Source: a virus
Length of the DNA stretch: 64,000 bases
Strand: one strand, 5' to 3'
IMG/VR virus record: IMGVR_UViG_3300033149_003588
Span: 74,460 to 138,459 of that record
The notes beneath the pieces are model-generated. The model had not been told where the DNA came from. It searched no databases and saw only the letters and a list, made by a program, of their open reading frames with translations. Below, piece by piece: positions 8,934 to 49,601 of the stretch. A program made the translations under genes and the position numbers. Each line of letters begins with the position of its first letter. Position 1 is the stretch's first letter.

Positions 8934-8966
8934 CTACATTGTGTCCCTGGATCATGCCCAATTTGA

Positions 8967-13500: not shown

Positions 13501-13771
13501 GCTCACCCTTCTTATATTTCTTTTTGTCCATAGAATCTGGAGCCATATAGGCTTCCATGCCTATAATAACAGGGATATCAATACTACTCGATAATTCTAG
13601 CAAAGATGGCATATTAAATATGTTACCATGCTCAGTAATGGCTACCGCTGGGTACCCTCTTTCTTTTGCACGCCTCAAATAATCCTCACGACGCATAATG
13701 GAATCCAACATCGAATATTCTGTATGCATGTGTAATGGAACATAATTCACAGACATGGTGCTCCCTAACAA
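10532..13771 (-). CDS. dnaE: DNA polymerase III alpha subunit (family C)
   Basis: PHP domain (HMHTEYS, TNDAHY), catalytic PDIDCD, KFDVLGL, FNxSH-like WNYSHS, OB fold. No intein. Confidence 0.96.
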   Translation of the reverse strand: MLGSTMSVNYVPLHMHTEYSMLDSIMRREDYLRRAKERGYPAVAITEHGNIFNMPSLLELSSSIDIPVIIGMEAYMAPDSMDKKKYKKGELHRYHLVLYAMNDIGYNNLVRLASLAYTRGFYRNPRIDYELLTQYSEGLVCSTACIAGPISKNIELGNIDAALEWNAKLLDLFGDKLLYEMMDHGIEIESTINNFLLEHFDHNKIIYTNDAHYLNPDDAFAHDVVLCIRTKKKLSDIKRLKFEGSNYHFCTIDEIRSLGVDDRYINNTTQILEWFEGYNIDKSLKMPRIYGDTMSQIRDKCTRRLFELGLNNDEYVDRLDYELSVIEKLGFSDYFMIVADIAEYARCNNIYMSYGRGSAAGSLVVWLLGITNLDPIKHNMLFERFLNEDRVSPPDIDCDYERDRRQELLQYIRDKYNGAFQIGSFNRLHLKSALRRIGTVLGIQSTVINKYIADIPMHDYDIDEFVADTMLFHKFASVNAEWPVLVTKLAGLPINLTVHAAGIVLGGGDSNIPVAKTSQSIEVTQYDMNDIEKIGYVKFDVLGLTSMDIIHKTVDYVKRTRNIDIDIYNLPLDDRDTYDLLSSGKTFGVFQMESAGFRDMLKMFKPSEFKHIVAACALYRPGPMNSGQTDFYIQGRHGAQVQYIHPDLESILSDTYGQMIYQEQIMMVGRTMAGYTASEADVLRKAVGKKDEDLLLAQEDKFIAGCINNGYTKELAVKIFELIKPAARYSWNYSHSVSYGMLAYTMAYLKVHYTTEFICAMLNYSSSGSKDRMGQILEDAMLFDIKIQAPDINVSEKDFTVDNDIILIGLSGVKGVGEKSIDAIISERESNGLFSSYVDFHNRIPKVRCNATVKRALIYAGCFDSIGDMNRREMIYYVDNETTTRLDDFTPDYKIQCESQVLPYCISTGYDGVTSISNILQLSDGTIVSFSGIIVDTKIITFGNGDNIISLFVQDNTGTLRAQVVPRNYDKHAAYIKKGAHLYFIGVIKTSKNNRRYVNLMTIRAMEKPRHAVAARIECDNMVEMIEAIGACEDAGLKFNTSEKLWGAHDSKYIINVDGYIDSSTILKLSRFKTIYTYE

Positions 13772-14454
13772 TTTAATAATTTAACATCATCTATATTGCT
13801 AGTCATTTTGATATCGTTTACTAATTGTCCCAATTCATTACATGGATACCCATGTTCACTAGGATCGATTAATTGTTGAATATAATAATGCTTAGCACCT
13901 ACGATAAAATTCATAACAACATTATGAATATCTAGTATATCAACAATACGAGAATCCATTGTGGTCCTAAAATATATATTATCGCTACCCAAGCTAGCAG
14001 CATGACGTATGTTGCTACAGACAGTATCGACAATTGGAGTGTGCTTCTTAAATACTCGATGATATTTTGTGGGTACTGTTTTCACATCTAGCGCTATAAT
14101 ATCAAACAAATCAAGGCACTCAACAAACAACGATTGAGAACAAGATGAATTACTATCGAGTTTTATGTTCCACCCAAGATTAAGAGCATATTCTGCAGCT
14201 TCAATTAACCTAGTGCCATACATAGTTGGTTCCCCACCACTAAATACTAAATTTTGGGTAAAACCACCATATTTACGCAATAGCGGAGTAAGAGAATTTA
14301 TTAATGATCCAGTAATGGGATGCGCGCGTGCTATGTCAATATTGTGACAATAAGGACATGACATGGTACAACCAGGTAAAAATAATACAAGAGAATTACC
14401 ATTAGGATAATCTATAGTAGAAAAAAGGTGAGGTATTTCAAATACCTTGCGCAT
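13765..14454 (-). CDS. nrdG: Anaerobic RNR activating radical-SAM enzyme
   Basis: CTMSCPYC cluster motif, FSGGEP; adjacent to nrdD. Confidence 0.9.
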   Translation of the reverse strand: MRKVFEIPHLFSTIDYPNGNSLVLFLPGCTMSCPYCHNIDIARAHPITGSLINSLTPLLRKYGGFTQNLVFSGGEPTMYGTRLIEAAEYALNLGWNIKLDSNSSCSQSLFVECLDLFDIIALDVKTVPTKYHRVFKKHTPIVDTVCSNIRHAASLGSDNIYFRTTMDSRIVDILDIHNVVMNFIVGAKHYYIQQLIDPSEHGYPCNELGQLVNDIKMTSNIDDVKLLNC

Positions 14455-14471
14455 TATTTTAATGCACCACT

Positions 14472-17400
14472 TTAATAAATATGTCTATTCTCAAATTCTG
14501 TTTGCTTACCAGCATTCCATAAACTCACAGGCCTATAATATCCTACCACCCTAGAATAAGTATCTATAGTATATGGTTGGCCATCACTATGGTCATATGG
14601 GCATTCGGAATATTTCCCAGTCATATATCCGTGCCTGGAGCATATGCTGTATACCGGTGTTATACTAAAATATGGTAATATGGTATTATTAGCTATGGAC
14701 TTCACTATATCTCTAGCTTGCGCTGGTTTCAATTCTGAACCAATATGTAAATGTAAAACAGTGCCACCAGTAAAATTACTTTGAAGATCTTGTTGAGCGA
14801 TGGCATGCTCTATAATATCACCATCATATGATGGATGGAAATGCACAGAATTAGAAAAATATGGCACACCATTACCCTCAGATGATTCATATATATCTGG
14901 ATATTTTATCCTTGCGAGCCTAGCTAGTCTAGTAGTAGCACCTTCAGCGGGTGTAGCTTCTAAATTATATAATGTCTGGTCCTCATCTCGCATATGATCA
15001 AGCCTATCAAGTATATATTCCATAGTTTCGATACCAAACCTGGTAGCAGTACTATCGTGCAATGGTAAACCCAATAAATTCATAGTAGCGTCATGCATGC
15101 CTATGATACCTATTGTATTAAAATAGGTCTTCCAGTATTCATTGTATGTTTCTTTATTGTCCTTTAGCCACCTAGCAGACATCGGATATAATCCCTGATC
15201 TGCACGCCTTTCTATTTCAGCACGCCTTGCCATCGATACATTTCTTGCAATGTCAAGATATTTATCTAATAATACCCTAAACCTATCAACACTACCATCA
15301 GCTTCATATGCTAACATGGGCAATGAAATAGAACATACTGTCGTACTCCCTGTTCCAGCAGCGCTACCAAATAATCCAAATACTTGTTTCTTTTCCTTGG
15401 TATGCTCCGACAATTTACACTCGTAATTATTATTCATTACATTGTTAATCTCATTGTGATCTATGCGTAGACGGCAATTATGCGTAACAATGCCATTAGG
15501 CAACTGAATGGCATGCATATCATTATCCACTTCTACATCATATACATATCCGGTGTAATCTACCGATTCAATACTGGCAACACGTCTAGCGTGTAAACCA
15601 CCGGTTATAAACATCTTTTGAAACTCAGTGATGGATTTTAGGTACCCGGCGATTATCTCATAGTTAGAGGTGTACGATTTACGATATGTATTAATAGCAC
15701 CGGGGTGCTTCTCGCATGTTATATTATCCTCGGTGATACCAAGCACGCTAGGATCTATACCATACCACCTACTTTTAGTATCGTAATTAAGTTGTGGTAT
15801 TATCTTTGGTATGTCCTCAGAAATAATAGTAACTATATAGGAATCCCAATATGTATTAGTACGCCAACTTCTTTCTTTTTTATATCTAATAGTGGAGTTT
15901 ATACCAACGGAACGCATTAGTGCTTGCATGCCAACTGATAAATCATATGATGCTATGTGAAACATAACTTCATGTCCACCAGTTGTTTTGACTCTGTGGT
16001 ACCCGTCGCCATCTATAAACCCAGCAATAACACCAGACCTGAAATCTAGTGGAGTACTAAATATATATTGCCCAATACCCTTATCCCTAACTATATCATC
16101 TGTACCAAACAAATTACGTAATAAATCATAAAGTCCGTGATCACTACAAATGGCGATTCTTATTGAATTGTCTCTATAATGAGTAGTATATGAACATTTA
16201 ATACCAAGTATATCATTAACAAATCTGCACACGAACTCTACCAAATCTAGTTCATCAGTGCCAAAATACATGGCCAAACTCTTGCTACCATTATGTTGCT
16301 TGCATCCCTCGGCCAGATATAACCCAACAAATCTACCAAAATTATAGTCTAACTCGACATTGCGACCATTAATATTTATGTACTCATCATATTGACATAC
16401 ATCAAATCCCTTTGTCATCAATAACCAATCACCCAACACTAACGATTCAGCAGACACTTCTATAATATTACCACCAACAACAGTAAAACATGGATGGTCT
16501 GGAGTTATAGACATCGCTCTACCATCATCCAGCGTCACCTTAATAATATTGCCATTGTATTTCTTCCTTAATATATGATTTACCGGTGCATAAACTGATT
16601 CGCCGTCACTATCAATCGACAATATAGATAATCTATCGCCGGGTTTATACCACTCGGCATCATCATCGGCTCGAATGCTTTCGTCACAATAGTCATCAAG
16701 ACCGCTAGCATTAATATATTCCGTACGCCCTCCTATTTGTATAAGTAATGGAGTATTGGCGGTAAAGCAACACATACTAGTTGTATCATCAGGGCTATTA
16801 TCAGAATTGATATAATTGGAAAAATATGGGGTACCATATTTAGCAGTAACATTCCATAACATCTCACGATCATCATCGAAATTAAACTCTTTAGTAATAC
16901 TTATTGTAGGAATGGGGAATGTCATAGGTATAGGTGCATCATAAAACAATTCAAACAACACCTCAGCTATTAACAATGCTTGATCAGAAAAATCCCCATA
17001 TGTATAAGAATCAACATGCTTGCCTGCGTGTATAATCTTTTTATTATATAGTGATGGTGTATAACCATAATCTAACGTAATATTAGAGAAAACAGTCTGA
17101 TAACCCGGTCGTATAAGACTATTATTTAAGAAATATATGAATTCTTGTAATGATTGTTTAACCTGTGCCCTAGTAAGACCATCAAATGCCACATAGGGAC
17201 TCAATAGCGTGTCAAAATTACTTACAGCAATCGCCCCTGCATATTCATTTTGCATAATAAACATAAAACTAGCTAGCTGCATAAGGGCAGAACTAAAATG
17301 CTTGGCTGGATCATGCCCAAGATAAGATGCATATTGGGCATTACCGTTTAATAAAAGGTCAGATAATGAAAACCCCGCACAATATGGCCCGAGAAATCCT

Positions 17401-17615
17401 AAGTCGTGTATATGTATATATCCATCCTGGTGGGCAACTTTAGCTTCACTATCAAATACTTCATTTAGCCAATAATCCTTAATAGCATCATTAAGATATG
17501 TACTATATAGATGCGATATACTTGGCGATGAATTGGCATTTTCTGTTCTAATGTCAGCATTTAGCAAATATCGATCAATTGAAGTCCTAAAATCTCTAGA
17601 CATGATACTCATCAC
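14472..17615 (-). CDS. nrdD: Class III anaerobic ribonucleotide reductase (no ATP-cone), intein-containing
   Basis: IHIHDL, SMC/CRL active-site segment, EATPAEG, YSRVVGY glycyl-radical loop. About 616 aa after splicing. Confidence 0.96.
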   Translation of the reverse strand: MMSIMSRDFRTSIDRYLLNADIRTENANSSPSISHLYSTYLNDAIKDYWLNEVFDSEAKVAHQDGYIHIHDLGFLGPYCAGFSLSDLLLNGNAQYASYLGHDPAKHFSSALMQLASFMFIMQNEYAGAIAVSNFDTLLSPYVAFDGLTRAQVKQSLQEFIYFLNNSLIRPGYQTVFSNITLDYGYTPSLYNKKIIHAGKHVDSYTYGDFSDQALLIAEVLFELFYDAPIPMTFPIPTISITKEFNFDDDREMLWNVTAKYGTPYFSNYINSDNSPDDTTSMCCFTANTPLLIQIGGRTEYINASGLDDYCDESIRADDDAEWYKPGDRLSILSIDSDGESVYAPVNHILRKKYNGNIIKVTLDDGRAMSITPDHPCFTVVGGNIIEVSAESLVLGDWLLMTKGFDVCQYDEYININGRNVELDYNFGRFVGLYLAEGCKQHNGSKSLAMYFGTDELDLVEFVCRFVNDILGIKCSYTTHYRDNSIRIAICSDHGLYDLLRNLFGTDDIVRDKGIGQYIFSTPLDFRSGVIAGFIDGDGYHRVKTTGGHEVMFHIASYDLSVGMQALMRSVGINSTIRYKKERSWRTNTYWDSYIVTIISEDIPKIIPQLNYDTKSRWYGIDPSVLGITEDNITCEKHPGAINTYRKSYTSNYEIIAGYLKSITEFQKMFITGGLHARRVASIESVDYTGYVYDVEVDNDMHAIQLPNGIVTHNCRLRIDHNEINNVMNNNYECKLSEHTKEKKQVFGLFGSAAGTGSTTVCSISLPMLAYEADGSVDRFRVLLDKYLDIARNVSMARRAEIERRADQGLYPMSARWLKDNKETYNEYWKTYFNTIGIIGMHDATMNLLGLPLHDSTATRFGIETMEYILDRLDHMRDEDQTLYNLEATPAEGATTRLARLARIKYPDIYESSEGNGVPYFSNSVHFHPSYDGDIIEHAIAQQDLQSNFTGGTVLHLHIGSELKPAQARDIVKSIANNTILPYFSITPVYSICSRHGYMTGKYSECPYDHSDGQPYTIDTYSRVVGYYRPVSLWNAGKQTEFENRHIY
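15477..16769 (-). mobile_element. Intein (431 aa) with LAGLIDADG homing endonuclease at the NrdD catalytic-Cys site
   Basis: Starts C1 (CFTANT) and ends VTHN followed by C+1. LAGLIDADG blocks FVGLYLAEG and IAGFIDGDG. Removal restores SMCCRL. Confidence 0.95.
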
Positions 17616-24892: not shown

Positions 24893-25402
24893 TTATAATG
24901 GGTTCTGCTGCTTGATTATATCTCTAATAAGATCATATGCAGCATCGGTTGTCGTTACTATATTACGCTTATTTACCATAGTAAGTAAATAGATACTATT
25001 AACCAATTTACCACCATCCGTAAGATCTAATATAACTATGTTATCACTACCTATCGCCTTGCTAATAATATCTATTTCAAGAACAGAGCCGGCAGTGAAC
25101 ACACCAGATAAAACAAATACTGATATTAATGAACCGCCATATCGATTAATTAATAAATCTATTGTAGACATGTTTATAGAATATACGATATGTGGTAAAG
25201 AACTAGAAGCGTCATATATAGCAGGACCAAATTTTGAATGATCAAACGCCCGCTTGGGACTATATATTATTAACTCGTCGCTATCATCGATAGGCGGTGT
25301 ATCATGTAATACCCTTATTAACTCATCATCATGAGCACCGCAGTCAATATTACCACCGAAGTAAATAGCATATTGTCGATTCATAATACCCCCATATATC
25401 AT
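24893..25402 (-). CDS. Nucleoside 2'-deoxyribosyltransferase / Rcl-like (N-glycosidase) fold protein, putative
   Basis: N-terminal AIYFGG strand, IIYSP, and AGSVLEI with a Glu at the position of the NDT nucleophile (G..xE motif). Similarity judged by eye. Confidence 0.45.
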   Translation of the reverse strand: MIYGGIMNRQYAIYFGGNIDCGAHDDELIRVLHDTPPIDDSDELIIYSPKRAFDHSKFGPAIYDASSSLPHIVYSINMSTIDLLINRYGGSLISVFVLSGVFTAGSVLEIDIISKAIGSDNIVILDLTDGGKLVNSIYLLTMVNKRNIVTTTDAAYDLIRDIIKQQNPL

Positions 25403-25422: not shown

Positions 25423-25983
25423 CTATAACCCTAATGAATATGTTTCTATATCTCTTATCGCTAATGCCGTCATATCTTTAATTTCCAAACAACCATCGAT
25501 AACATAAAGTTTTGTCAGCTGTTTATGTTTAAATAGATATACTATAATTTGTAATATTCTCTTCTCTTCACTCGATAATCTCTTATTAATGGATCCCCCA
25601 TCATCCCTACCCCTATTCTTAATCCTCTTTTTGGCCACACCAAATGGTACCTGAATATAATATATGGTTGGAACATTGTATTCAAGCGAATATAAAAACT
25701 CAAGTTGAGCTACTGTCCTGGGGAAACCATCTAATATAACAGTATTGGAGGCCATCATTATGCTGCCCGCAATCTCTTGCCTAATGTCATCCTCACGCGG
25801 AGATAGCCAATCAACAGAATTCAATTCACCCATAGAATCATCACTATTGTGAATCCTCCTAGCTATATCACCAGACGATATATATCCATATCCCATGTGC
25901 TCTGCTAAAGATTTGGCAAATGTACTTTTACCACTACCTGGAACACCCATAACCACTATAACATTTTTCCTATCTTCACCCAT
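25423..25983 (-). CDS. Adenylate-kinase-family nucleoside monophosphate kinase (short, no LID)
   Basis: GVPGSGKST P-loop, ISSGDIAR, LDGFPRTVAQ, R.DD. Confidence 0.9.
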   Translation of the reverse strand: MGEDRKNVIVVMGVPGSGKSTFAKSLAEHMGYGYISSGDIARRIHNSDDSMGELNSVDWLSPREDDIRQEIAGSIMMASNTVILDGFPRTVAQLEFLYSLEYNVPTIYYIQVPFGVAKKRIKNRGRDDGGSINKRLSSEEKRILQIIVYLFKHKQLTKLYVIDGCLEIKDMTALAIRDIETYSLGL

Positions 25984-26983: not shown

Positions 26984-29602
26984 TTAATCAGACGAATTAA
27001 ATGGAAACTCAGGGAAAGCATAATTACTACACTCACCCATCCTTAGCGATCCGGGCATATCAAAATCACAATTATCAAAAATACCATCTATATGTAACTT
27101 TTGCCTACCCTGTCTATCCTTATCAATATTATAAATAACATTACCATGAGCTATCCCCTCGATTCTGGGCTTGGGTGCAAGAACCACAAACTTATCCGCA
27201 GCCCTACCCATGCCTTTGGCACCAGCATTATAGCGCATGCCACCAGCCTTTGTATCAATAGCTTCATCACTCTGTTGCGATAATGCAAATATTGCTATCT
27301 CTTGGCCACTTTTGCGTGATCGCCATTTTAATTCATTTGAAGCATCTTCTAATAATTGGTATTTCTGCATGCCCTTATGTCTGGCCTCTGGTCTTATCAT
27401 CTGAATATAATCTATAAATACCATCTGGACCCCATACTTAATATAGTGCATATCAATAGATGCCATAATATTACTCATTGTAATATCAGATAACTCATCT
27501 ATATAGATATTAGAATTATGTATCATTCCAAAGGCCTTTTGTATTATCTTGGCATTGTTATCATCCACATTACCGTTCATTATGTCAATACCAGAGATCC
27601 CAGTAAGAATCGCAACCATTCTACCTGCTAATTCAGTGGGAGACATTTCACAAGATATTATCAATATTGGAAGTTGATTAACAACTATGCCCATATCAAC
27701 AGCCAAATTGCACATAAAAGCAGATTTACCAACCCCACTATTACTACTAATATAATATAAATAACCTGTATTTATCCCTGACCATAATTTATTGATGGTA
27801 CCCCAACGATGTGACATATGATAACCACGTATCTTATCATCAGATTGTAGCTGTTTAATAAAATCTAGACGTGCAGCTGATGCATATGTGCTAGGTGTCG
27901 AATCATATATAACCAAATTATTTACTATGCCAGATGTATAAAACCCCTCAATGGTATCATTGATTGGAGTGGAAGCGTCGGCCAATCCAGCCCTCAAATC
28001 TGATACACTATCCCATATACGTCGCCTACATGATAGGTCAGATAATAAAAATATGGCATCTTCAAGATCATCTAATTTATCTATCGACCCTGGTAATGTG
28101 GCAATAATAGTACATTCATCTTGTGTCAAAAACTTTTGATATGTCTCAGCACCAAACGCTGCGCCACTGATAATTAAATTAGATATCTTGTCAAACAATG
28201 ATGCTATCGTACTATCCGTAAAATCATCATCATGTAACTTACTTACAATATACTTTCGGGTTGACTTATTATTAACCAGTGTGGCTAATATTCTACGCTC
28301 AAGCCCAACATCCTTCAGCATCGACATAGTATCCGCATGATAAAAATCACGCAATGTGTCAATATCTATATCAGATAATTCGCTCACATATTGAAGCCCG
28401 AGATCCATCTGAAATAATGATATATTAACAAAATATTTCTTAAGAGCATTAAGAAATCTATAACGATTCGTCATGTTATCAGCGGGATATCGCTCGACTA
28501 ACTCATCTATCATATATTGTATTGGTATTTTAGCCGCATCGATAATATTAAGCACAGCATCCACACCATATTCTATTATATACTCATCTGGGTCTTGGGA
28601 TGTAGGAATAAGCGCAACCCTTATATTATGTTTCTTATATTTGCGAGAATGCACTATCTCATAGATACTATTACGCCCACTCATGGCGCCATCTGGTAAC
28701 CATACAACATCAACACATTCCTTAATTAAATCTAATTCTAGATGTTGTGGCTTCACTGGTTTCCCAAGAGTAGCCATTGTATTTTTTATACCGTTCTGCC
28801 ACAACAATAATTGATCAAAAACACCCTCAACAAAAATCGCCTGGCCACTTCTAGATATATACCCCCTGGCCTGTTTATAACCAAATGGCAGATTAGTAGC
28901 CAACACATTGTCTTTACCCACACCCATATATTTAGGATCCCTACCCGGGGCCATGGTCTGAAAATACACAAATCTTCCATGCTCATCAGTTATGGGGAAA
29001 ATATATGCAGCAGACATGCGCATATTAGAGGCAAATCCAAGCCTAACTATATCATCATACCTATACCCCTCTTGGACAAGATAGCTAGCAAGCGCATCAG
29101 GATTAGCACAAAAACCGATTTTAAATGCCTCAATAGTATCTGATCTTAATCCCCTATCGTATAATAACTGAAGCTTACTTTTACTATGTAATAAATTGTT
29201 ATGCATATAGAATATGGCATCTTTAGTTATTGACAAGTAAGTAGCTATTTGAGGGTCTATATCTTCTTCAACAATATAATCATCCAAACTTAGGTCATAG
29301 TATTCAGCTAATCTTAATATAGCCTCGGTGAGGCTTTCGCCATAATACAATGTCCGCCACTTAATAATATCTCCACCTACACCACAACCGAAACACTTAA
29401 ACAAACCCAGGTTATCATTTATCTTAAATGACGGATTATTTTCTTCGTGAAACGGGCACAATATAGTTATATTGCTACCCTGCCTATCCATTGATGCTTC
29501 TGTAAGGTCTAGATCGTGAATAATTACTTCAGAAATACTTATATTCTCTTTAAGATAGTCTATTACCTTTCTTATATCTGAAAAACGGCTCTCCAAATTC
29601 AT
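26984..29602 (-). CDS. DnaG primase - DnaB helicase fusion
   Basis: CPFH..C..C zinc finger, TOPRIM VEGVFD, DPD, DnaB-like C-terminus SGVGKS, FIDYIQ, LSQ. Confidence 0.92.
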   Translation of the reverse strand: MNLESRFSDIRKVIDYLKENISISEVIIHDLDLTEASMDRQGSNITILCPFHEENNPSFKINDNLGLFKCFGCGVGGDIIKWRTLYYGESLTEAILRLAEYYDLSLDDYIVEEDIDPQIATYLSITKDAIFYMHNNLLHSKSKLQLLYDRGLRSDTIEAFKIGFCANPDALASYLVQEGYRYDDIVRLGFASNMRMSAAYIFPITDEHGRFVYFQTMAPGRDPKYMGVGKDNVLATNLPFGYKQARGYISRSGQAIFVEGVFDQLLLWQNGIKNTMATLGKPVKPQHLELDLIKECVDVVWLPDGAMSGRNSIYEIVHSRKYKKHNIRVALIPTSQDPDEYIIEYGVDAVLNIIDAAKIPIQYMIDELVERYPADNMTNRYRFLNALKKYFVNISLFQMDLGLQYVSELSDIDIDTLRDFYHADTMSMLKDVGLERRILATLVNNKSTRKYIVSKLHDDDFTDSTIASLFDKISNLIISGAAFGAETYQKFLTQDECTIIATLPGSIDKLDDLEDAIFLLSDLSCRRRIWDSVSDLRAGLADASTPINDTIEGFYTSGIVNNLVIYDSTPSTYASAARLDFIKQLQSDDKIRGYHMSHRWGTINKLWSGINTGYLYYISSNSGVGKSAFMCNLAVDMGIVVNQLPILIISCEMSPTELAGRMVAILTGISGIDIMNGNVDDNNAKIIQKAFGMIHNSNIYIDELSDITMSNIMASIDMHYIKYGVQMVFIDYIQMIRPEARHKGMQKYQLLEDASNELKWRSRKSGQEIAIFALSQQSDEAIDTKAGGMRYNAGAKGMGRAADKFVVLAPKPRIEGIAHGNVIYNIDKDRQGRQKLHIDGIFDNCDFDMPGSLRMGECSNYAFPEFPFNSSD

Positions 29603-30276: not shown

Positions 30277-30780
30277 CTAATCAGGATCTGTCTCACTATT
30301 TAAAATATCCTCAATATATCGTATCACCTCTGATGGAACTTTGTCTGGAACCCTAACAAGATATTGAAGATATTGAATATCATCAACTATATCACTAATA
30401 TTTCGGCCAGTATACTTACCAAAAGAGATGGTCCAGTCACCAGGGGCACCCATACTACTACATTGAGCACATAGTTTATCATCGCCTTCAACCACAGCAG
30501 GTCGTCCACATTTATCACACATAATTATTTTATATTTAGGTGGCAGCACAATGTCACTATATGAACTTATAACCTCATCCTGTTTATCACTAACGAAGCC
30601 ATGCACACTTTCAATAGATGAATATGATATGTTCTGCCGTACAAGCCTGCCCCGACTTTCTATTTCTACCACAGCAGTTTTAAATTCAGCATTAGCAGAA
30701 ATTATTACACCCTTGCGCACTCTAGCGCCATCTCTAAAAAGCACTTCTCTTCCGGGCAATAATTCTTTATGTTCTTTCAT
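30277..30780 (-). CDS. Hypothetical protein with CxxC motifs and a C-terminal FGKY (DUF3820-like) domain
   Basis: AGGAGG RBS before ATG 30780; CDKC..CAQC; ISFGKYTGRNISDI. Confidence 0.7.
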   Translation of the reverse strand: MKEHKELLPGREVLFRDGARVRKGVIISANAEFKTAVVEIESRGRLVRQNISYSSIESVHGFVSDKQDEVISSYSDIVLPPKYKIIMCDKCGRPAVVEGDDKLCAQCSSMGAPGDWTISFGKYTGRNISDIVDDIQYLQYLVRVPDKVPSEVIRYIEDILNSETDPD

Positions 30781-32143
30781 ATTGCTCCTCCTTAAATTGG
30801 TAATATTTGTGTATATTTGATCTATATTTTGCATGTTTCTCTAAGTATGGTACATCATCACACAAATCAAATATGGTAGCTTCAGTTTTACCATCTGCGA
30901 TTCTCACTGTTCTACCAACAAGTTGATAGTCATCCTTTGTAGGATAGGCCTCAATTAAACAATCGAGACTCGGAATATCTAATCCTTCTTTAGCAAGCGT
31001 CGTAACTAATATCTTAATATCTTTATTATCTAAACGAGTTAATATATCTGTTCTATCATCTGTATCATCAACACCGTATAATTCCTCACAATTGTTGCTA
31101 TTTAGCATGGACATTATTCTTTTACCATGATTAACCTGATTAACAGCTATAATAACAGACTTATCAGCATTGGAATATTCAGTGGCCATGTCAATTATAA
31201 GTTTTGTCCTAGAATCGTTTTCGATAACTTGTTTTTTAAAAACATTTTGATAAGTACCCAACGTTTTATCGGTAGGACCAACCTTAATCCTTTTAATAGT
31301 TGGAGAAATAACATATCCATCCGAGGCAAGAATATTAAATGGAACTCTAAAACCAACCATGCCACCAATACCTTCGAGTAACATATCATTCCCATCAGCC
31401 CTATAATCTGATGCGGTAAGCATGAGTAATCTAGATACATGTTTAAAATGTTTAGTAACGTCCTGTAACATATCACTAGCCAAAGAGTGTGCCTCATCTA
31501 CTACAACCATCTCGGTTTCATTGATAATTCGTTTTATATCACTATTGCTCGCCCCAGATAAAGCTCTGATTAATGTCTGAACAGTAGCCACATTTACATC
31601 ATGCACATCACACCTACCAGCGCCTATTATACCTACTGGAATCCCAAGTATATGCTCAAGAATACGTTGAGCCTGGAATAATAAAATATTAGCATTTACC
31701 AAAAACATAGTTTTACGTTTTATTGCATGAATACATGCAGCTGCTACAGCTGTTTTACCAGAACCAGTCGGTAACACGCAAAACATTGCAGGCTCACTAT
31801 AATTAATAAATGCCCGAAGAGCATCTTTTTGATATGGTCTTAGGTCAATATTAATATCGCTTGGCATATCAACTGAAGTACATGGAGGATGTCCATCATA
31901 TATTACCGTATATTCATAATTATGACTACTAAGAATATTTTTAACACGCCGCAAAAACCCAACCCTAAATTTTAGACCCTTGGATATGACATATCTCCAC
32001 CCACCGGTATACTCATATGCCCTGCTAAACATATATCCAGTAGGCCTATAGCGCATCTCTCTTCTAAGTATGCTATATAATTTATTGGGGGCATTAAGAA
32101 TCCGCCCCCAGATATTATCTACTTGTATAATTATAGAAGGCAT
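30767..32143 (-). CDS. Superfamily 2 helicase (UvsW-like)
   Basis: LRPYQ, PTGSGKT, DEAH, TAS, EGLDIP, QLVGRTVR. Start placed at the TAATG overlap at 32143. Confidence 0.92.
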   Translation of the reverse strand: MPSIIIQVDNIWGRILNAPNKLYSILRREMRYRPTGYMFSRAYEYTGGWRYVISKGLKFRVGFLRRVKNILSSHNYEYTVIYDGHPPCTSVDMPSDINIDLRPYQKDALRAFINYSEPAMFCVLPTGSGKTAVAAACIHAIKRKTMFLVNANILLFQAQRILEHILGIPVGIIGAGRCDVHDVNVATVQTLIRALSGASNSDIKRIINETEMVVVDEAHSLASDMLQDVTKHFKHVSRLLMLTASDYRADGNDMLLEGIGGMVGFRVPFNILASDGYVISPTIKRIKVGPTDKTLGTYQNVFKKQVIENDSRTKLIIDMATEYSNADKSVIIAVNQVNHGKRIMSMLNSNNCEELYGVDDTDDRTDILTRLDNKDIKILVTTLAKEGLDIPSLDCLIEAYPTKDDYQLVGRTVRIADGKTEATIFDLCDDVPYLEKHAKYRSNIHKYYQFKEEQYERT

Positions 32144-33534
32144 TATATCAATTCTATTCCAGTCCCGGCAGCAGTAGAACGTAAAACAGCCAACCATCTT
32201 TCTCGAACTTTATCCCATGTTCTCTGTATAGACCATGCCATACCACGTTTAGCTAAATCGGCAAGCCATTCTCTACTATTGTACGCCTTGCACAATAATC
32301 GACCCATATCCCACATCGATGGTACTGGCCTCAGCATAGCATTATTCAATGGTAAAGCGGCTACCATATCATATTTATAGGCCATGTCAGCATGCATAAT
32401 AGAAGTATTATTGCCCCTTAAACCAAGATATTCATTATACTCATCTGTAAAATGACCATACGGACCGCCACAACTTATACCAGCTATGTATCCCCCTTTG
32501 ATCCTATCTATCATTGACGTATTATAGGGAGCCATCACGGGTGTGCCAGCAGCCATAGCTTCTCTAATAGGCAAACCATCGCCTTCACCAAGACTAGTCG
32601 AAAGATAAACATCAAATAAATTATATAACATATTAATTTCAGCATCAGACACAGGCGCATATTGGTTAAGTATCGAGTCAACAGTTGGAACAATTATTTT
32701 GTCTGCTATACCAAAACTGTGAGCTACCTTGGATATAGATATAGCTGTTTGTCCTATGTTATCGACAGTATGAATATATCCCAACAATTTAATATCTGGA
32801 TTTTGCCTATATGCAGCTGCTATCCCACCTATAAATCCAGTTAACCATTTTCGTGTGGAATTCGTCGCTATATAACCAACAATCATAGCATCATCGTATC
32901 CACTAAGCCGTCCAAGATGTTTGCGTATCGCAGCAATTTGCATAAGTAGTCTATCATCAGGTTTTTGGTCAGGCCTATATTTATAGAAAATCTGGGGATC
33001 AACAGCATGCTCTATTATTATAGACCTATCCCCTAACCTTTTATTAATTTTGGCAATATGTTTATGCGTCCAGTCATTAAATAATACCGGAACATCTGCA
33101 ACTTCAAAAGCCTCTAGCCATTCTAATCTTAATGGGAGTCCATCTATGGGACTATACCATATCCACTTAAATTGTTTGTTTCTGAGTGATCTAATCTCAT
33201 TTATATATGAAGCCAAATCCTGTAACACCCACATATCTTCAAGACTAAAAAATATATCATAATCTAATTTACTCAATAATTCTTTGGTTCGTCCTAATCC
33301 ATACGGATCACCAGCATTAAATTGGTTATATAACGGGTACAACTTCATATCGGTCGGGAGGTCAAATAATGATGGTTCACCAGTATAACTTTTAGCAGCA
33401 ACTGTGAGCTCTATATGACCAGCGCGATGTAATTCAACCAGAGTATTCCTCAGCACTTTAGCAAAACCAGAAGGAATCGTGGGAGAATCACAATAAGCCA
33501 ACACCTTTATTTTGCCCATTGTATCACCCGCCAA
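32143..33534 (-). CDS. GT4 (GT-B) glycosyltransferase
   Basis: DSPTIPSGFAKV N-terminus; STSLGEGDGLPIREAMAAGTP (Ex7E). Confidence 0.88.
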   Translation of the reverse strand: MAGDTMGKIKVLAYCDSPTIPSGFAKVLRNTLVELHRAGHIELTVAAKSYTGEPSLFDLPTDMKLYPLYNQFNAGDPYGLGRTKELLSKLDYDIFFSLEDMWVLQDLASYINEIRSLRNKQFKWIWYSPIDGLPLRLEWLEAFEVADVPVLFNDWTHKHIAKINKRLGDRSIIIEHAVDPQIFYKYRPDQKPDDRLLMQIAAIRKHLGRLSGYDDAMIVGYIATNSTRKWLTGFIGGIAAAYRQNPDIKLLGYIHTVDNIGQTAISISKVAHSFGIADKIIVPTVDSILNQYAPVSDAEINMLYNLFDVYLSTSLGEGDGLPIREAMAAGTPVMAPYNTSMIDRIKGGYIAGISCGGPYGHFTDEYNEYLGLRGNNTSIMHADMAYKYDMVAALPLNNAMLRPVPSMWDMGRLLCKAYNSREWLADLAKRGMAWSIQRTWDKVRERWLAVLRSTAAGTGIELI

Positions 33535-34346: not shown

Positions 34347-34922
34347 TTACTCCTTTCGCTTTAGATATTTATCAAGTAACTCATTATATTGCCCCCACTT
34401 ATATATCTGCCAATATAAAACATTGGTATCATCATAAGTAATCATAATTCTGCCAGGAATCAATTCACTAAACTCGACAGAAAAACTCTTTTGATCACGC
34501 GGTGTAACTATTATATCACCAGAATATACGGTAGAATCAAGAGGAGGATCATCAATATAATCGAATATTAGAACATCAGAATATTTAGTATACTTCTGTT
34601 TATAAAATAATAACGGATGTAGTGGGAACAAATTGCCACTCTTATCTGTATGCACCATGGCTTCTTTAACTATTTGAGAAAACCATATGTGTCTAAATCT
34701 AGCCTTCGGATATACTTGCCTAGCATGATTACTTCTCCACTCCTTCGTAGCTGGATCCCTAAGCTTACATTCAGCGCCGAATACTTCATTGTATGCGTCA
34801 CCCAAAGTATCATCAGATCTTATGGTATGTTTGGCAGATTGACCATATACACGACCATGGCGACCCATTAATCTGTTGGTTCTACGCTCAAAACTTTTCC
34901 ATGCCGAATCTGATGTTGACAT
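34347..34922 (-). CDS. PD-(D/E)XK nuclease, probable Holliday-junction resolvase
   Basis: WKSFERR...GD.....AECK; next to recA. Confidence 0.65.
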   Translation of the reverse strand: MSTSDSAWKSFERRTNRLMGRHGRVYGQSAKHTIRSDDTLGDAYNEVFGAECKLRDPATKEWRSNHARQVYPKARFRHIWFSQIVKEAMVHTDKSGNLFPLHPLLFYKQKYTKYSDVLIFDYIDDPPLDSTVYSGDIIVTPRDQKSFSVEFSELIPGRIMITYDDTNVLYWQIYKWGQYNELLDKYLKRKE

Positions 34923-36031
34923 TATCCCTTATCTTCTGATACTGATTCTATACCGCTATCCTCAATAATATTAATATCTCCCCTGTCTTTACCTATCATT
35001 GTGTATACTCTATTTCTAATAATCTGATAATATTCATCATTTTTATGTAGTTCCTCTAAAAATGCATCACGACCATTGGCACCCATCAATTTCTTATTAT
35101 TATCATCAAGAAGATTGAAATATGAAGATTTTTGTTTTATAATACCCGCCCTAATACCGGCCTCAAACGCATCATAATATTTATCAACACCAGATCTAAA
35201 ATCAACCTTTACCTTGAATCTCGCACCAACAGTTGGAGCCAATTTATTTTTAGTTATTTGATATTCAGTTTCACATCCTGTATTAATATCATCACCATCA
35301 TCAGATCCTATTAATGTATGTCTAACAACCTTTAACTGATATGAACAATAAAATCTTAGCGCAGTGCCACCAGTAGAATATGTGGGATCACCGAACATCT
35401 GATTAGGATTCTTGCGAGTCTGGTTAATAAACATCACAACAGTTCCACTATTAGTTATGCCAGGTGTAATTCTCTTTAACCCCTGTGACATTAATTGTGC
35501 AAGATGTGCTCTCTTGCCCGGGCCATCGGCCATTGGTGTTTCTACAATTGCCTTGGGAACCATTGCTGGTACGGAATCGACCACAATTAAAGCAAATTTG
35601 CCAGTATCAATTAGCGCCTGCAATATGTCGAAATAATCCTCACCGTATAGTGGCTTACTGTCAGACCTAACAACGAGTAACTCCTCAACATTAACACCAA
35701 CATTACTAAAAAATCTAGAACTAGCAGCACCCTCTGCATCGAGGAATGCGCATAAACCACCGCGACGTTGAGTTTCCACAATAGCCATTATAGATAACAA
35801 TGTCTTCCCACTAGCCTCCGGCCCATAAATATCAACAATCCTACCGCGAACGAATCCGCCCAATCCTAAGCATCTATCCATAGCTAGTATACCAGTGGGT
35901 AGTGTATCTATTTCATAATTAGACATAGCACTAAGCGGACCAATAGAATCGGCATACGACTTCAGACTGTCAACTTTTTCTAAATCAAATCGATCTTGAT
36001 CAAACATGGCCATATTATCTCTCTTACTCAT
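34922..36031 (-). CDS. recA: RecA/UvsX recombinase
   Basis: GPEASGKT, FLDAE, VVDSV, FINQ, STGGTALRF, KNKLAP. Confidence 0.96.
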   Translation of the reverse strand: MSKRDNMAMFDQDRFDLEKVDSLKSYADSIGPLSAMSNYEIDTLPTGILAMDRCLGLGGFVRGRIVDIYGPEASGKTLLSIMAIVETQRRGGLCAFLDAEGAASSRFFSNVGVNVEELLVVRSDSKPLYGEDYFDILQALIDTGKFALIVVDSVPAMVPKAIVETPMADGPGKRAHLAQLMSQGLKRITPGITNSGTVVMFINQTRKNPNQMFGDPTYSTGGTALRFYCSYQLKVVRHTLIGSDDGDDINTGCETEYQITKNKLAPTVGARFKVKVDFRSGVDKYYDAFEAGIRAGIIKQKSSYFNLLDDNNKKLMGANGRDAFLEELHKNDEYYQIIRNRVYTMIGKDRGDINIIEDSGIESVSEDKG

Positions 36032-37163
36032 TGTTTTCTTCTGCCATATACTTGATATTTAGGTGTTCAATAAATGACCGTATATTCGGAGCTGACCACG
36101 AGCCAGGACTATCGGGTTTAGATTCATTCTTGTCTTTACCAAATTCGCGGAATTCCCCCGCCAAATCTACTGCATTCGCTTTCTTATCGAGAACGATACG
36201 CCTAATCAACTCATCTAATTCATTTTGCAATGCAGTAGTATCCTCTTCGTCACGTAAATCACTTTCAGGTGACGGTTCGCCCAACATAGCGCCGGGAGGT
36301 AATAGCTTGTCCGCTAATTTTCTTGCAGCTATCTTCAGGGGCTTCGGAATTCCAGTAGTCAAAGCCAACACACCAAGAAAGGCTGGATCATGATCAACTA
36401 TATAACCCAGTGGTTTACCCTGGTAGGGAGGAGAAGTTACTATAATCGCAAGATCACCAGTATACTTAACCTCTGTTGGAGATGCTATGCCACCTATAGT
36501 AGGATCCATATCCTCACCAGCTATAAAAGCATTTAGCTCATCGGGATCCATAACCTGGTTCTTAATTATCTCTATAATAGCCTCTTTATTTGGTATATCT
36601 TGTCCTTCTATTAATGATTCGTCAAATGGTGAATCCGCTAGCGCTATGGCAGTATATTTTACGATATTCTTAGAAGATTTGGCTTTCTCAATCTCAAAAT
36701 CGAAATTATAAGCATCACCTCTAGCTTCTATATTTTCCTTGAAAGCAGTAAACAACTGGTTACCCTGATTAAGGATCTCAACACGACCGGTAGCATAATT
36801 ATAAACCGGAACCATGTGTACCTGTCTTACGGGAAAATCTCTCCTATCAGAGTTCCTGTTATATTTCTCACGTTCAAGAAGAAAATCCCATAAAGGATCT
36901 GTCTTGCCGCAGAGTCCACACATACATGGCTGCCGCCCAGAAATCTCGACAATATTACATGGCTGGGTTTTATATTTTCTGAGCAATATTTGCTCCGACT
37001 GTCCTTCATTTCTCTTGGCCGAAAAAATCTGGTGTGTCCAGAAACTAACCGGTTGAGTAATTCCAAATTTTTCGTGCAACAATAAGCGAATCCTAAACCT
37101 CTTATTATCCTGAAATTCTACATATCCAGCATGTCCATTACTACTAACATCGTTCCATCCCAT
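36024..37163 (-). CDS. Single-stranded DNA-binding protein (T4 gp32-like)
   Basis: FRIRLL..FWTH..C..C..DP..VPVYNY...YNFDFEIEK pattern, acidic C-terminal half, between recA and the purZ-like gene. Confidence 0.7.
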   Translation of the reverse strand: MGWNDVSSNGHAGYVEFQDNKRFRIRLLLHEKFGITQPVSFWTHQIFSAKRNEGQSEQILLRKYKTQPCNIVEISGRQPCMCGLCGKTDPLWDFLLEREKYNRNSDRRDFPVRQVHMVPVYNYATGRVEILNQGNQLFTAFKENIEARGDAYNFDFEIEKAKSSKNIVKYTAIALADSPFDESLIEGQDIPNKEAIIEIIKNQVMDPDELNAFIAGEDMDPTIGGIASPTEVKYTGDLAIIVTSPPYQGKPLGYIVDHDPAFLGVLALTTGIPKPLKIAARKLADKLLPPGAMLGEPSPESDLRDEEDTTALQNELDELIRRIVLDKKANAVDLAGEFREFGKDKNESKPDSPGSWSAPNIRSFIEHLNIKYMAEENNE

Positions 37164-37175
37164 AATATTTCTCCT

Positions 37176-38441
37176 TTATAATATGTGTGTATTCTTAATC
37201 ACCTCATTATAACCCTTACCATATCCCATAAGATAGATCGGTATCTTCTCTGAGGTAATTATGTCAAGAACATCAACGAGTCTATCTATAGAAGAATTAA
37301 ATTGTTCAATAGTCATATCACCGAGAGGATATGAAGTGTCCTTGACTCCGAGTAGACTATCAACAAATAATTGACCAGCACCAATTCCAGCGATAATTTC
37401 ACGCATGTCCGCACACATATCATCACCGATGCTAGGATAAAAATAATCTAAGAAATTGATGGCCAATATGCTAGGTCTACATATATCACATGCGTAATGA
37501 AACTCGTCTCCACTAAATTCGAATACACGTCTAACACGTTTTGAAACGGTGGTACTCTCAATTACATGCTTGCCAATGCGCTCGCTAATAATGTCCCAGC
37601 TAATTTCCTCACCCTTCGATGGGCCAGAATTGCCAGCAACTCTGATAGGATACAACCGAGTAACACCCACGATATCTCTAACGGTAAGTGGTGACAATCC
37701 TGCCTCCATAAGCCATTGTGCTGGGCCAGTAGAACGACTGGTGGTATATGGATAATATCCATGGTGAATAGATAACATCATACCCTGTGCACCCTCCAAT
37801 AATATATTGCCACCAGCACGCTCTACATTATTGAGAAATTCACTAACCCTGGTATCACACAAATATGGCTGCAACATATCGATATCTTTAGCGTGACGCA
37901 TTTTACCCTTACGCTGAATCTTTTCAACCAGTGCGGCGCCACCACCATGCCTGGTACTACCTATTATATCATTAAGATCGGGCGCATGCTCGGGACAATT
38001 ACTACATCCATGAAGTCGATCATAATTCTTACATTCTGCTGGATCTTTACCATTCCGTATCCATGCACAAGCATTTTCTCCACCAGATTCGGCCATCTTG
38101 TGACGTAAATCTATAATGGATGCATATGGATCGACAATAATGCGCTCATGCGTAGATATACCCTCAGATTCTAACCACTGTATTTCTCTCTTAAATATTT
38201 CTAAATCTATTTGAGATCCAGCACCCAACACCAATTTAACATCAGGATCAGACATGCCAACACATGGTATAACCTGAAATGCATATTGTTTGGTTCTATC
38301 TGGATTCCAAACACTATGACCGGCATTGGGACCACCGGTACGCACTATCGCATCGTATGTCCTATCTACTATCAAATGCTCCGCCACTCTACCCTTGCCT
38401 TCTGAGCCAAATGCTAGCCCTACTATTATATCGACTGGCAT
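37176..38441 (-). CDS. purZ: PurZ/PurZ0-type adenylosuccinate-synthetase homolog (candidate 2-amino-adenylosuccinate synthetase)
   Basis: PurA fold (GPNAGH, LLEGAQG, YPYTTSR, YPIRVAGNSGP, TTVSKRVRRV), with FGSEGKG (Ser13) in place of the PurA GDEGKG, and NFLDY at the TKLD position. Confidence 0.75.
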   Translation of the reverse strand: MPVDIIVGLAFGSEGKGRVAEHLIVDRTYDAIVRTGGPNAGHSVWNPDRTKQYAFQVIPCVGMSDPDVKLVLGAGSQIDLEIFKREIQWLESEGISTHERIIVDPYASIIDLRHKMAESGGENACAWIRNGKDPAECKNYDRLHGCSNCPEHAPDLNDIIGSTRHGGGAALVEKIQRKGKMRHAKDIDMLQPYLCDTRVSEFLNNVERAGGNILLEGAQGMMLSIHHGYYPYTTSRSTGPAQWLMEAGLSPLTVRDIVGVTRLYPIRVAGNSGPSKGEEISWDIISERIGKHVIESTTVSKRVRRVFEFSGDEFHYACDICRPSILAINFLDYFYPSIGDDMCADMREIIAGIGAGQLFVDSLLGVKDTSYPLGDMTIEQFNSSIDRLVDVLDIITSEKIPIYLMGYGKGYNEVIKNTHIL

Positions 38442-40017: not shown

Positions 40018-40570
40018 TCGTTGCTAAAATAATATTGCTATCTATAATATAGATATTACCCTCAATATGTTGTCCACCACGATGCTCTTCAAATATAATA
40101 ATGTCACCCTCAGATATTTTAAGTTTAACATCAGGTCCAACACTTAATACTCTAGCTATAGGCGTATATTTTCTGGCCAAATATTCTGGTATAAATTCAG
40201 AGGTAGATTCTCTCAGGGTTTCAATTATAACCAGTCTGTGCCGCGCTCTAAGTGTGCCATCAATTATTTGGGAAGCCGGTTTTCGATCGTATACACAACA
40301 CCATATATTATTTAGTGGAATAACATCATATTTGCCCAATCCCCATGCTCCTTCACACCGATGATCATATATTACATGCATATCGGGTACTAAATCGATC
40401 TCATTTTCAGAAAATACATTAATAATAGTACCACGTCTAAATTTGATATTAATATACTGTATTAAATGTTCTGGTATAAAATCACAATCACCATATAATG
40501 GTTCGCTCCTAATAATAGCAGAATCAGTAATTAATTTTAAATTATTAATATCTAAATCATCTAGCATCAC
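39995..40570 (-). CDS. Tandem GroES/Cpn10-like co-chaperonin
   Basis: Two homologous halves: FIPEHL..RGTIINV..PDMHVIY and FIPEYL..ARVLSVGP..EGDIIIF..IILATI. Confidence 0.7.
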   Translation of the reverse strand: MMLDDLDINNLKLITDSAIIRSEPLYGDCDFIPEHLIQYINIKFRRGTIINVFSENEIDLVPDMHVIYDHRCEGAWGLGKYDVIPLNNIWCCVYDRKPASQIIDGTLRARHRLVIIETLRESTSEFIPEYLARKYTPIARVLSVGPDVKLKISEGDIIIFEEHRGGQHIEGNIYIIDSNIILATIEDHDEF

Positions 40571-48548: not shown

Positions 48549-49020
48549 TATAACCCCACAAATTTATAAATGATTCTTTCAGATGGTTATATAGTTCTTT
48601 ATCTTTGATATATATTGATATGTCATGCCAATCACTACTAGACAAATAATTCATTCCGCCCATCATAACATTATCATCATTCCATAATATAAATTTTAAA
48701 TGACTTAAAGGAACGAATCTTATATCTAATATGTTGGAATATTCAACCAAATGCCTATTTAATCTCTTAATATAATTATCTCTAGCTCTTGTGCTTCCAC
48801 AATTGGGACACGGTTGAGGATAAAATATCCCCACTATGGCCTTGATTTTTACATTGAATTTCTGAATATCACTAAGAAACTTTGCAGTATCATTATACCG
48901 GTCTGCCCCACAAGCATTCAAACCACAATATATGCCATAGCTAGCTATTAACATTTCACCACTAGGATTAGTAGATAATATATATTCATATACATCCTTT
49001 ATCAATTTATATAGTTTCAT
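48538..49020 (-). CDS. Phospholipase-D-like (HKD) nuclease
   Basis: HLKFILWNDD...GGMNY single HKD-type motif. Confidence 0.7.
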   Translation of the reverse strand: MKLYKLIKDVYEYILSTNPSGEMLIASYGIYCGLNACGADRYNDTAKFLSDIQKFNVKIKAIVGIFYPQPCPNCGSTRARDNYIKRLNRHLVEYSNILDIRFVPLSHLKFILWNDDNVMMGGMNYLSSSDWHDISIYIKDKELYNHLKESFINLWGYNVD

Positions 49021-49601
49021 AAATATTGTTTCAATGATCTTAGGTCATCAATAAATTGTGGTAACTTCGTTTTATCTCTTAATATATATGATGGATGATA
49101 TGTTGCTATTACGGGTACAGTAAATTTATCCAAAATTAATACATCCTTTATAATATTCATTAATGATTTCAAACTCCTAGATGCTGGCTCTTTCATTAGT
49201 GCTCTGGCAGCTACGCGTCCTAGACAACATATTATACTAGGACGTATTATATCAATTTGAGAGTAAAGATATCCTATGCATGACAAGATTTCTTCTTTAT
49301 GGGGATCTCTATTATTAGGTGGGCGACAATGTACAACATTGCTAATATAAACATCTTGTCTACTCATACCAGCAGCCTCCAGTGCTTTATTAAGCACTTC
49401 TCCCGATTTACCAGTAAATGGAAGTCCCACAAAATCCTCGGTTACCCCAGGGGCCTCACCCACAAGCATAATGTGGGCATCATGATTGCCATCACCAAAC
49501 ACTACAAAATTTCTCTCTAAGTGTAGGGCACATTTCCTACATGTTGCCATATCTGCAAATAGCGCCAACAATCTATTAGCTTTAGAATCAGATAATTGCA
49601 A
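49017..49601 (-). CDS. Family 4 uracil-DNA glycosylase (4Fe-4S)
   Basis: CRKC, GEAPG, PFTG, CRPPNNRDP, YHPS. TTG start after GGAG. Confidence 0.93.
   Translation of the reverse strand: MQLSDSKANRLLALFADMATCRKCALHLERNFVVFGDGNHDAHIMLVGEAPGVTEDFVGLPFTGKSGEVLNKALEAAGMSRQDVYISNVVHCRPPNNRDPHKEEILSCIGYLYSQIDIIRPSIICCLGRVAARALMKEPASRSLKSLMNIIKDVLILDKFTVPVIATYHPSYILRDKTKLPQFIDDLRSLKQYL

Follow-up and report, generated by a model that had tools for sequence, protein, structure and literature searches.

The 64 kb window analysed here comprises positions 74460–138459 of the IMG/VR record IMGVR_UViG_3300033149_003588, a complete phage genome of 144,798 bp that carries 104-bp direct terminal repeats at its ends. 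Within it lies a gene for a homolog of adenylosuccinate synthetase (PurA), here called P0001, which has serine in place of the catalytic aspartate and resembles PurZ, the synthetase of phages that use 2-aminoadenine (Z) in their DNA. The gene belongs to a replication module whose polymerase is DnaE (family C), and it is this combination, together with a set of candidate nucleotide pool-editing genes (Table 1), that is considered here. A megablast search with 15 kb of the window returned zero matches among GenBank phages.

P0001 matched the Pfam family Adenylsucc_synt (PF00709) far above chance (E 9.4e-44), and the top NCBIfam model was PurZ (NF038379), with the PHROG match being 1211, annotated as "2-aminooxy adenylosuccinate synthetase". 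When solved structures were ranked against the protein, phiVC8 PurZ came first (6FM1, E 5e-42), followed by Pyrococcus PurA, PMBT28 PurZ and S-2L PurZ. P0001 was aligned with proteins taken from annotated records (phiVC8, S-2L, PMBT28, Acinetobacter DMU1, Wayne, Frizzle, Hiyaa and E. coli purA). Its residues 9–19 read LAFGSEGKGRV, giving the P-loop FGSEGKG, in which Ser13 stands where PurA has its catalytic aspartate. Both this serine and a short archaeal-type TTV...RR loop had been pointed out in a preliminary description made from the window's letters, and both are confirmed. According to PMC12884076, 99% of PurA sequences keep Asp13, and all (100%) of the phage PurZ-group sequences have serine. 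With the exception of Asp13, the catalytic and substrate residues of PurA are all retained in P0001 (K16, N39, H42, T163, R177, Q219, T234, R267, V268 and R304/R305).

The residues of phiVC8 PurZ reported to make room for dGMP's 2-amino group, F12, S14 and T262 (bioRxiv 10.1101/2025.10.22.683976; PMC8342488), align with F11, S13 and T297, and the dGMP-pocket residues of P0001 are identical to those of phiVC8 and S-2L PurZ. The predicted substrate is dGMP. The site of the phosphate donor is of a mixed kind. F295 and Y298 of phiVC8 PurZ, reported to stack the adenine of ATP (bioRxiv 10.1101/2025.10.22.683976; PMC8342488), correspond to F330 and Y333, but P0001 has Asp332 where the ATP-using enzymes have Asn297/Gln308, the polarity of which conflicts with guanine (PMC8342488), and PurA and PurZ0 likewise have an aspartate there. 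Canonical PurA's (T/N)KxD guanine motif is lost, with NFLD replacing TKLD and the lysine gone. As Asp332 is retained, GTP is slightly favoured as the donor. A four-cysteine insertion is missing from the phiVC8, S-2L, PMBT28, Wayne and E. coli sequences, and its C..C....C..C pattern, which is kept in part of the clade (A1 consensus), may bind zinc.

An exhaustive profile search yielded 430 cluster representatives at E <= 1e-30, and serine occupied position 13 in 263 of the 273 nearest aligned homologs and references. A phylogeny of PurA, PurZ and PurZ0 had been proposed as a check in the preliminary description. In FastTree and IQ-TREE (maximum likelihood) trees, P0001 fell among the Ser-type radiation, to which crown PurZ and PurZ0 also belong, inside neither clade. 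With PurZ-like genes from 50 IMG/VR contigs included, it belongs to a clade of six (Shimodaira–Hasegawa-like approximate likelihood ratio test, 95) with the proteins of contigs G001–G004, all of which encode DnaE and dUTPase, and of G005, which encodes PolA. The nearest relatives come from phages of 100–166 kb that also have DnaE. Taken together, the family models, structure ranking, residues and trees agree with the earlier designation as a PurZ-signature synthetase, and on these grounds P0001 is a genuine PurZ-family member in the broad sense, with an active site that looks ancestral (PurZ0-grade).

Compared with the ATP-dependent PurZ of Vibrio phage phiVC8 and cyanophage S-2L (PDB 6FM1, 7ODX), P0001 shares the short archaeal-type PurA fold, the serine at Asp13, the F11, T297, F330 and Y333 equivalents and the aspartate loop TTV(S/T)K(K/R)VRR. 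It differs in being only 33% identical, in a GSEGKG P-loop where crown PurZ has GSTGKG, in Asp332 where those enzymes have an adenine-selecting Asn/Gln, in the additional Cys4 insertion, in a C-terminal region that is longer, and in its place outside the crown clade in the trees, and it is accompanied by DnaE, not DpoZ or PrimPol, without a DatZ/MazZ cluster. With PurZ0 of the phages Wayne (Arthrobacter) and Ghobes (Gordonia), which comes with DutZ and DmtZ, it shares Ser13, Glu14 and the base-specificity aspartate, whereas its P-loop reads GSEGKG, not GSEAKG, F330 and Y333 stand where PurZ0 has M/F and Q/S, and in the trees it lies outside the PurZ0 clade. The lineage of this phage resembles the Wayne/Ghobes system in pool editing by NDT-like (DmtZ) and dUTPase-type enzymes instead of DatZ/MazZ (PMC12884076), but this genome is without a dUTPase partner (lost or lacking), has DnaE where those phages have a PolA-type DpoZ-1, and measures 145 kb against ~44 kb.

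Table 1. Features of the PurZ-like gene, the replication module and the candidate pool-editing genes. Positions are those of the window unless marked as genome positions.
Feature	Position	Strand	Evidence or remark
PurZ-like (Ser-type) adenylosuccinate-synthetase homolog P0001, 421 aa	37176..38441	-	Pfam PF00709, NCBIfam NF038379, PHROG 1211, phiVC8 PurZ
Ser13 codon TCA, PurA catalytic Asp13 position	38403..38405	-	translation and alignment column
Cys4 insertion, ~39 residues (~120-158; Cys 126, 138, 147, 150)	37968..38084	-	alignment
Aspartate-binding loop TTVSKRVRR, residues 297-305	37527..37553	-	T297 = phiVC8 T262
Phosphate-donor base-recognition motif NFLDY, residues 329-333	37443..37457	-	F330/Y333 as in ATP-using PurZ, D332 as in PurA/PurZ0
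DnaE-type (family C) DNA polymerase alpha subunit, 1079 aa	10532..13771	-	PHP, DNA_pol3_alpha, finger, HHH_6 and OB domains
Conserved 379-aa protein between purZ-like and recA	36024..37163	-	no Pfam match; weak PHROG match of unknown function
RecA	34922..36031	-	PF00154; conserved in relatives
UvsW-like superfamily 2 helicase	30767..32197	-	ResIII / DEAD / Helicase_C; homologs in relatives
DnaG-DnaB primase-helicase fusion	26984..29602	-	Zn_ribbon_DnaG, Toprim, DnaB_C
Adenylate-kinase-like NMP kinase, candidate (d)ZMP/(d)NMP kinase	25423..25983	-	PF00406 E 5.6e-16
Divergent NDT-fold protein P0266, 169 aa, candidate DmtZ-like dAMP N-glycosidase	24893..25402	-	profile-profile comparison and fold
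Adenosine-deaminase-family protein, 315 aa, outside window	genome 10217-11164	-	PF00962 E 4.7e-19, 69 bits vs cut-off 27
NrdD (anaerobic ribonucleotide reductase, intein-bearing) and NrdG activase	13765..17615	-	phage's own dNTP supply
UDG-superfamily glycosylase	49017..49601	-	PF03167 E 2e-36; homologs in G001, G002

The replication module and its occurrence in other phages

The dnaE gene is intact, with the full domain architecture, and encodes the only recognisable DNA polymerase of the complete genome, in agreement with its earlier designation as the replicase. Six-frame searches of the complete genome detected neither PolA (PF00476) nor PolB, and phmmer found no protein in it similar to phiVC8 DpoZ or S-2L PrimPol. 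The preliminary description had placed the synthetase gene beside recA and a gene for a single-stranded DNA-binding protein (SSB); recA is there, but the SSB designation was not confirmed for the adjoining 379-aa protein. Homologs of this protein hold the equivalent slot in contigs G002, G003 and G004 and in Bacillus phage vB_BpsS-140.

The pairing of a PurZ-like enzyme with DnaE, with which the preliminary description was not acquainted, occurs more widely. Among 50 IMG/VR contigs of at least 30 kb that bear a PurZ-like gene, 8 encode DnaE and 32 encode PolA; with a further contig (G051) the pairing is present in at least nine IMG/VR contigs, as well as in vB_BpsS-140 from GenBank. A common module was recognised by phmmer in this genome, in G001–G004, G009, G011 and G013, and in vB_BpsS-140, in the order PurZ-like protein, unknown protein, RecA, UvsW-like helicase, DnaG/DnaB, Adk, NDT and/or Dut, and DnaE, in phages of 50–180 kb. 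DnaE also occurs together with a DatZ-like YfbR domain in G008/G009 and in G011, and accessory genes of the Z pathway recur among the relatives that share the module.

Phage vB_BpsS-140 (MH884512), a siphovirus from Lake Elmenteita, is the sole cultured phage found with the PurZ-like/DnaE module. Its genes run from a GSEGKG PurA-like protein through an HNH gene, a 402-aa unknown protein, recA, a UvsW helicase, DnaG, adk and dut to DnaE, and apart from the HNH and dut genes the same set is found in the phage described here. The two differ in that the genome of vB_BpsS-140 is 55 kb, that a dUTPase gene follows adk where this phage has an NDT-like gene, and that the PurA-like protein of vB_BpsS-140 lies near the crown PurZ clade and not with P0001.

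The search was also made from the side of the polymerase. A PurA homolog of any kind is present in only 6 of the 50 contigs whose DnaE is closest (5 Ser-type, 1 Asp-type), and the PurZ-like trait is therefore, on this distribution, an accessory to a widespread DnaE module. A 190-kb contig, G057, belongs to a DnaE phage with a short PurA-like gene that has Asp (GDEGKG) instead of Ser, and may offer a natural contrast.

Candidate pool-editing genes

To our knowledge, replication in all characterised Z phages is by a family-A DpoZ or by a PrimPol, and all of them clear dATP by DatZ, DUF550/DUF5664 or DutZ. Six-frame Pfam searches of the complete genome found no HD/DatZ, MazG/MazZ, DUF550, DUF5664 or dUTPase domain, and phmmer searches with Z-phage proteins of phiVC8, S-2L, PMBT28, Wayne and DMU1 gave no DatZ, MazZ or dUTPase match in the genome. 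The absence of DatZ, MazZ and DpoZ that had been noted for the 64 kb thus extends to the entire 144.8-kb genome, and the wider search for HD/MazG dNTPases proposed at that time was negative. A PurB-like lyase is likewise not encoded in the complete genome, and host PurB is therefore assumed. Pool-editing-type genes that were absent from the preliminary description do exist in the genome, namely those for an adenylate-kinase-like (Adk-like) kinase, for a DmtZ-like NDT-fold protein (P0266) and for a protein of the adenosine deaminase family.

Orthologs of the Adk-like kinase adjoin the primase gene in G002, G003, G004, G009, G013 and vB_BpsS-140. P0266 is encoded directly after the kinase, in the slot that is occupied in G002, G003 and G004 by an NDT-like gene and then a dUTPase gene. 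The slot protein of G004 and its homologs have precomputed PF05014 matches, and G003 and G004 show the order Adk, NDT (PF05014), dUTPase. In G002 (IMG/VR 3300033145_001136) adenosine deaminase, adk, NDT-like and dUTPase genes stand in tandem (12358–15098 of one stretch of the contig), and genes for a PurB-like Lyase_1 protein and a nitroreductase lie directly upstream of the purZ-like gene (8519–11086 of another stretch). With a PurB-like lyase adjoining the purZ-like gene, a pathway through a succino-intermediate fits. In G001, an open reading frame (ORF) of 297 aa (16346–17239 of a stretch of this contig, minus strand) has NDT-like motif fragments (SIGTAQELEY and FAYLSGPMDC) ahead of a dUTPase domain, and may be a rearranged DmtZ-DutZ-type fusion.

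The relationship of P0266 to the NDT family emerged from profiles and fold. Against the profile of the relatives' NDT-like proteins it scored 81% probability (E 1.2e-5, 124 columns; hhalign), and the N-terminal domain of the biochemically characterised Wayne DmtZ (PMC12884076) scored 95.5% probability against the same profile. Residues Y14, D20, N77 and E109 of P0266 fall in invariant or near-invariant columns, corresponding to the Tyr/Asp/Asn/Glu set of NDTs. An AlphaFold2 model built on an alignment of NDT-family members reached a predicted local distance difference test (pLDDT) value of 76, and its top PDB matches by VIA-align were 7M5H (Z score 12.7), YtoQ (11.5), several NDTs (10–11), MilB (10.2) and Rcl (9.4), with other Rossmann-like folds scoring nearly as well. 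The ESM Atlas model again gave matches to the NDT family, at template modelling scores of 0.66–0.68. Foldseek searches of the PDB with the alignment-based model returned nothing at E <= 0.001, and a single-sequence AlphaFold model had a pLDDT of 35. No match to P0266 was found by BLASTP, phmmer, Pfam (PF05014 included), PHROGs or a word-based homolog search; a hidden Markov model (HMM) made from the relatives' NDT-like proteins did not recover it, and searches of the relatives' genomes with P0266 gave no match.

DmtZ, a dAMP N-glycosidase and deoxyribose-5-phosphate transferase of the NDT fold, belongs to the Z pathway and is itself undetected by Pfam (PMC12884076). NDT-M2, another NDT-fold enzyme, also belongs to the pathway (bioRxiv 10.1101/2025.10.22.683976). 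P0266 resembles DmtZ in fold, in the Tyr/Asp/Asn/Glu positions and in occupying a slot by kinase and dUTPase genes, but differs in having no direct sequence similarity to it (BLASTP, phmmer) and in being neither fused nor adjacent to a dUTPase. It is very probably a member of the NDT superfamily, and the chances that its function is DmtZ-like are about even.

The adenosine-deaminase-family gene, which was traced from a weak phmmer match, is shared with few others. Among the 50 PurZ-like contigs the family was found only in G002 and G003, both of which are among the four closest relatives; the G002 gene immediately adjoins the adk–NDT–dut set.

A proposed route to Z-DNA and its alternatives

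The phage probably replaces adenine with Z, judging from the genes it carries. P0001 would act as a functional PurZ-family enzyme (N6-succino-2-amino-2'-deoxyadenylate synthase) that joins dGMP and aspartate, and its product would be turned into dZTP by host PurB and kinases, the phage Adk-like kinase perhaps contributing. As DnaE is the sole recognisable polymerase, it would be the enzyme that inserts Z opposite T, and we infer that Z would be found in virion DNA. Adenine would be kept out at the level of the monophosphate and the base, without a dATP/dGTP hydrolase: dAMP would be cleaved by P0266, acting as a DmtZ-like enzyme of the NDT fold, and the adenine or (deoxy)adenosine set free would be destroyed by the adenosine-deaminase-family enzyme. 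That dZTP is made by the phage and incorporated by DnaE, with adenine excluded by dAMP cleavage and adenine/adenosine deamination and not by dATP hydrolysis, is considered to have a little better than an even chance of being correct. The broader proposal, that a lineage of large DnaE-replicase phages builds Z-DNA by means of a family-C polymerase, of which this member excludes adenine through a DmtZ-like N-glycosidase and an adenosine/adenine deaminase in the absence of a dATP hydrolase, is put forward tentatively.

Several observations weigh against this interpretation. An enzyme that hydrolyses dATP or dGTP was not found in the genome, whereas all characterised Z phages encode one or more, and P0266 is recognised by profile-profile comparison and fold only, not by Pfam or HMM searches. 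As 44 of the 50 phages with the closest DnaE are without any PurA homolog, the DnaE of this phage is probably not specialised for Z. P0001 scored 217 bits against NF038379, under the cut-off of 300, and in the trees stands outside both of the biochemically characterised clades (PurZ and PurZ0). Approximately unbiased tests did not reject its sisterhood to crown PurZ or to PurZ0 (p 0.20 and 0.07), and its deep placement is provisional. Lastly, the DNA of vB_BpsS-140 was reported to be cut by EcoRI (PMC6483233), although full dZ substitution of PCR DNA blocked or partly blocked cutting by 15 of 18 enzymes, EcoRI included (PMC12944874).

A real alternative, albeit an unlikely one, is that dZ nucleotides are made while substitution of the genome is partial, with A and Z mixed and both dATP and dZTP used. 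It arises because the genome has no dNTP hydrolase (DatZ, MazZ, DUF550, DUF5664 and Dut all being absent) and because this DnaE is not exclusive to PurZ phages, its close relatives being mostly in phages without PurZ. The restriction pattern of vB_BpsS-140 could also suit a mixed genome: its DNA is reported to be uncut by DraI yet cut by EcoRI (PMC6483233), and the genome has 21 sites for DraI (TTTAAA) and 24 for EcoRI. These restriction data are ambiguous, however, and are not taken as support. Counts of restriction sites in the genome described here showed no striking avoidance. The DmtZ-like and adenosine-deaminase genes, on the other hand, suggest active removal of adenine, and substitution is complete in all Z phages characterised so far (PMC12884076), both of which speak for full replacement.

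It is somewhat less probable again that the enzyme of this Ser-type clade has another substrate or purpose, such as GMP or a different purine nucleotide, sabotage of the nucleotide pool or counter-defence, and that no Z is present in the DNA. The position of the clade outside the assayed groups would be in keeping with this, as would its clade-specific Cys4 insertion, the hybrid donor motif NFLDY and the score below the NCBIfam cut-off. Against such a purpose stand a dGMP pocket that is the same as in phiVC8 and S-2L PurZ, the PurB-like lyase gene adjoining the purZ-like gene in G002, and a co-occurrence with Dut, NDT and DatZ-like genes that resembles known Z phages. That P0001 is an ordinary PurA-type auxiliary metabolic gene product raising AMP synthesis in infection is very improbable: membership of the PurA superfamily and the further nucleotide-supply genes of the phage (NrdD/NrdG and thioredoxin) would accord with it, but the catalytic Asp13 found in 99% of PurA (PMC12884076) is replaced by serine, and T297, F330 and Y333 are unlike PurA.

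More than 2000 viruses already have a predicted PurZ (PMC13128860), so that the presence of a PurZ homolog is in itself nothing new. The published statements on Z phages that were consulted name PolA or PrimPol polymerases only (PMC8342488; PMC12944874; PMC12884076), and a literature search on PurZ, 2-aminoadenine or diaminopurine with DnaE or polymerase III returned no relevant paper, most subscription journals lying outside the search. The association of PurZ with a family-C replicase, and the set of NDT and adenosine deaminase without a dNTPase, appear to be undescribed in the searchable literature. If the proposed route through DnaE, P0266 and the deaminase is correct, ZTGC DNA can be copied by a replicase of the bacterial, family-C kind, an ordinary DnaE replication module can take up the Z trait, and the exclusion of adenine can be reached via different enzymes, an NDT-fold N-glycosidase together with an adenosine deaminase. 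Z genomes would thereby gain a third polymerase family as well as a new logic of pool editing, with a bearing on the evolution of noncanonical genomes and on the engineering of Z-DNA in bacteria. The question of Z is directly testable, since the cultured relative vB_BpsS-140 has been deposited (DSM 29700).

Other features of the genome

Over the whole genome, 161 of the 173 called ORFs lie on one strand, and the coding strand contains 32,757 G against 20,968 C, with a GC skew of ~0.2 throughout. The window starts inside a giant ORF of 5279 aa (genome 60827–76666; window 1–2207, minus strand). All of the following genes are likewise on the minus strand of the window. The gene for NrdD (14472–17615) is split by an intein that contains a LAGLIDADG homing endonuclease, and is accompanied by that for NrdG (13765–14454) and, nearby, one for thioredoxin (9893–10198). 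Just downstream of DnaE, as transcription runs, 7260–9896 encodes a 557-aa SbcC/Rad50-like ATPase and a 309-aa SbcD/Mre11-like metallophosphoesterase.

Two GT4-type glycosyltransferase genes are found amid the replication genes (32143–33534 and 40557–41741), the second of which matches "GT4-conflict" (PF20706). A 664-aa FtsH-like protein with AAA and Peptidase_M41 domains, unusual in a phage, is encoded at 44281–46275. The UDG domain family, to which the glycosylase in Table 1 belongs, has been reported to co-occur with dZ-enriched contigs in a metaGPA study (bioRxiv 10.1101/2025.10.22.683976). Its gene is adjoined by one for a PLD-like nuclease-family protein (the two together spanning 48538–49601), for which the PF13091 match of 26.6 bits falls slightly under the cut-off of 27.

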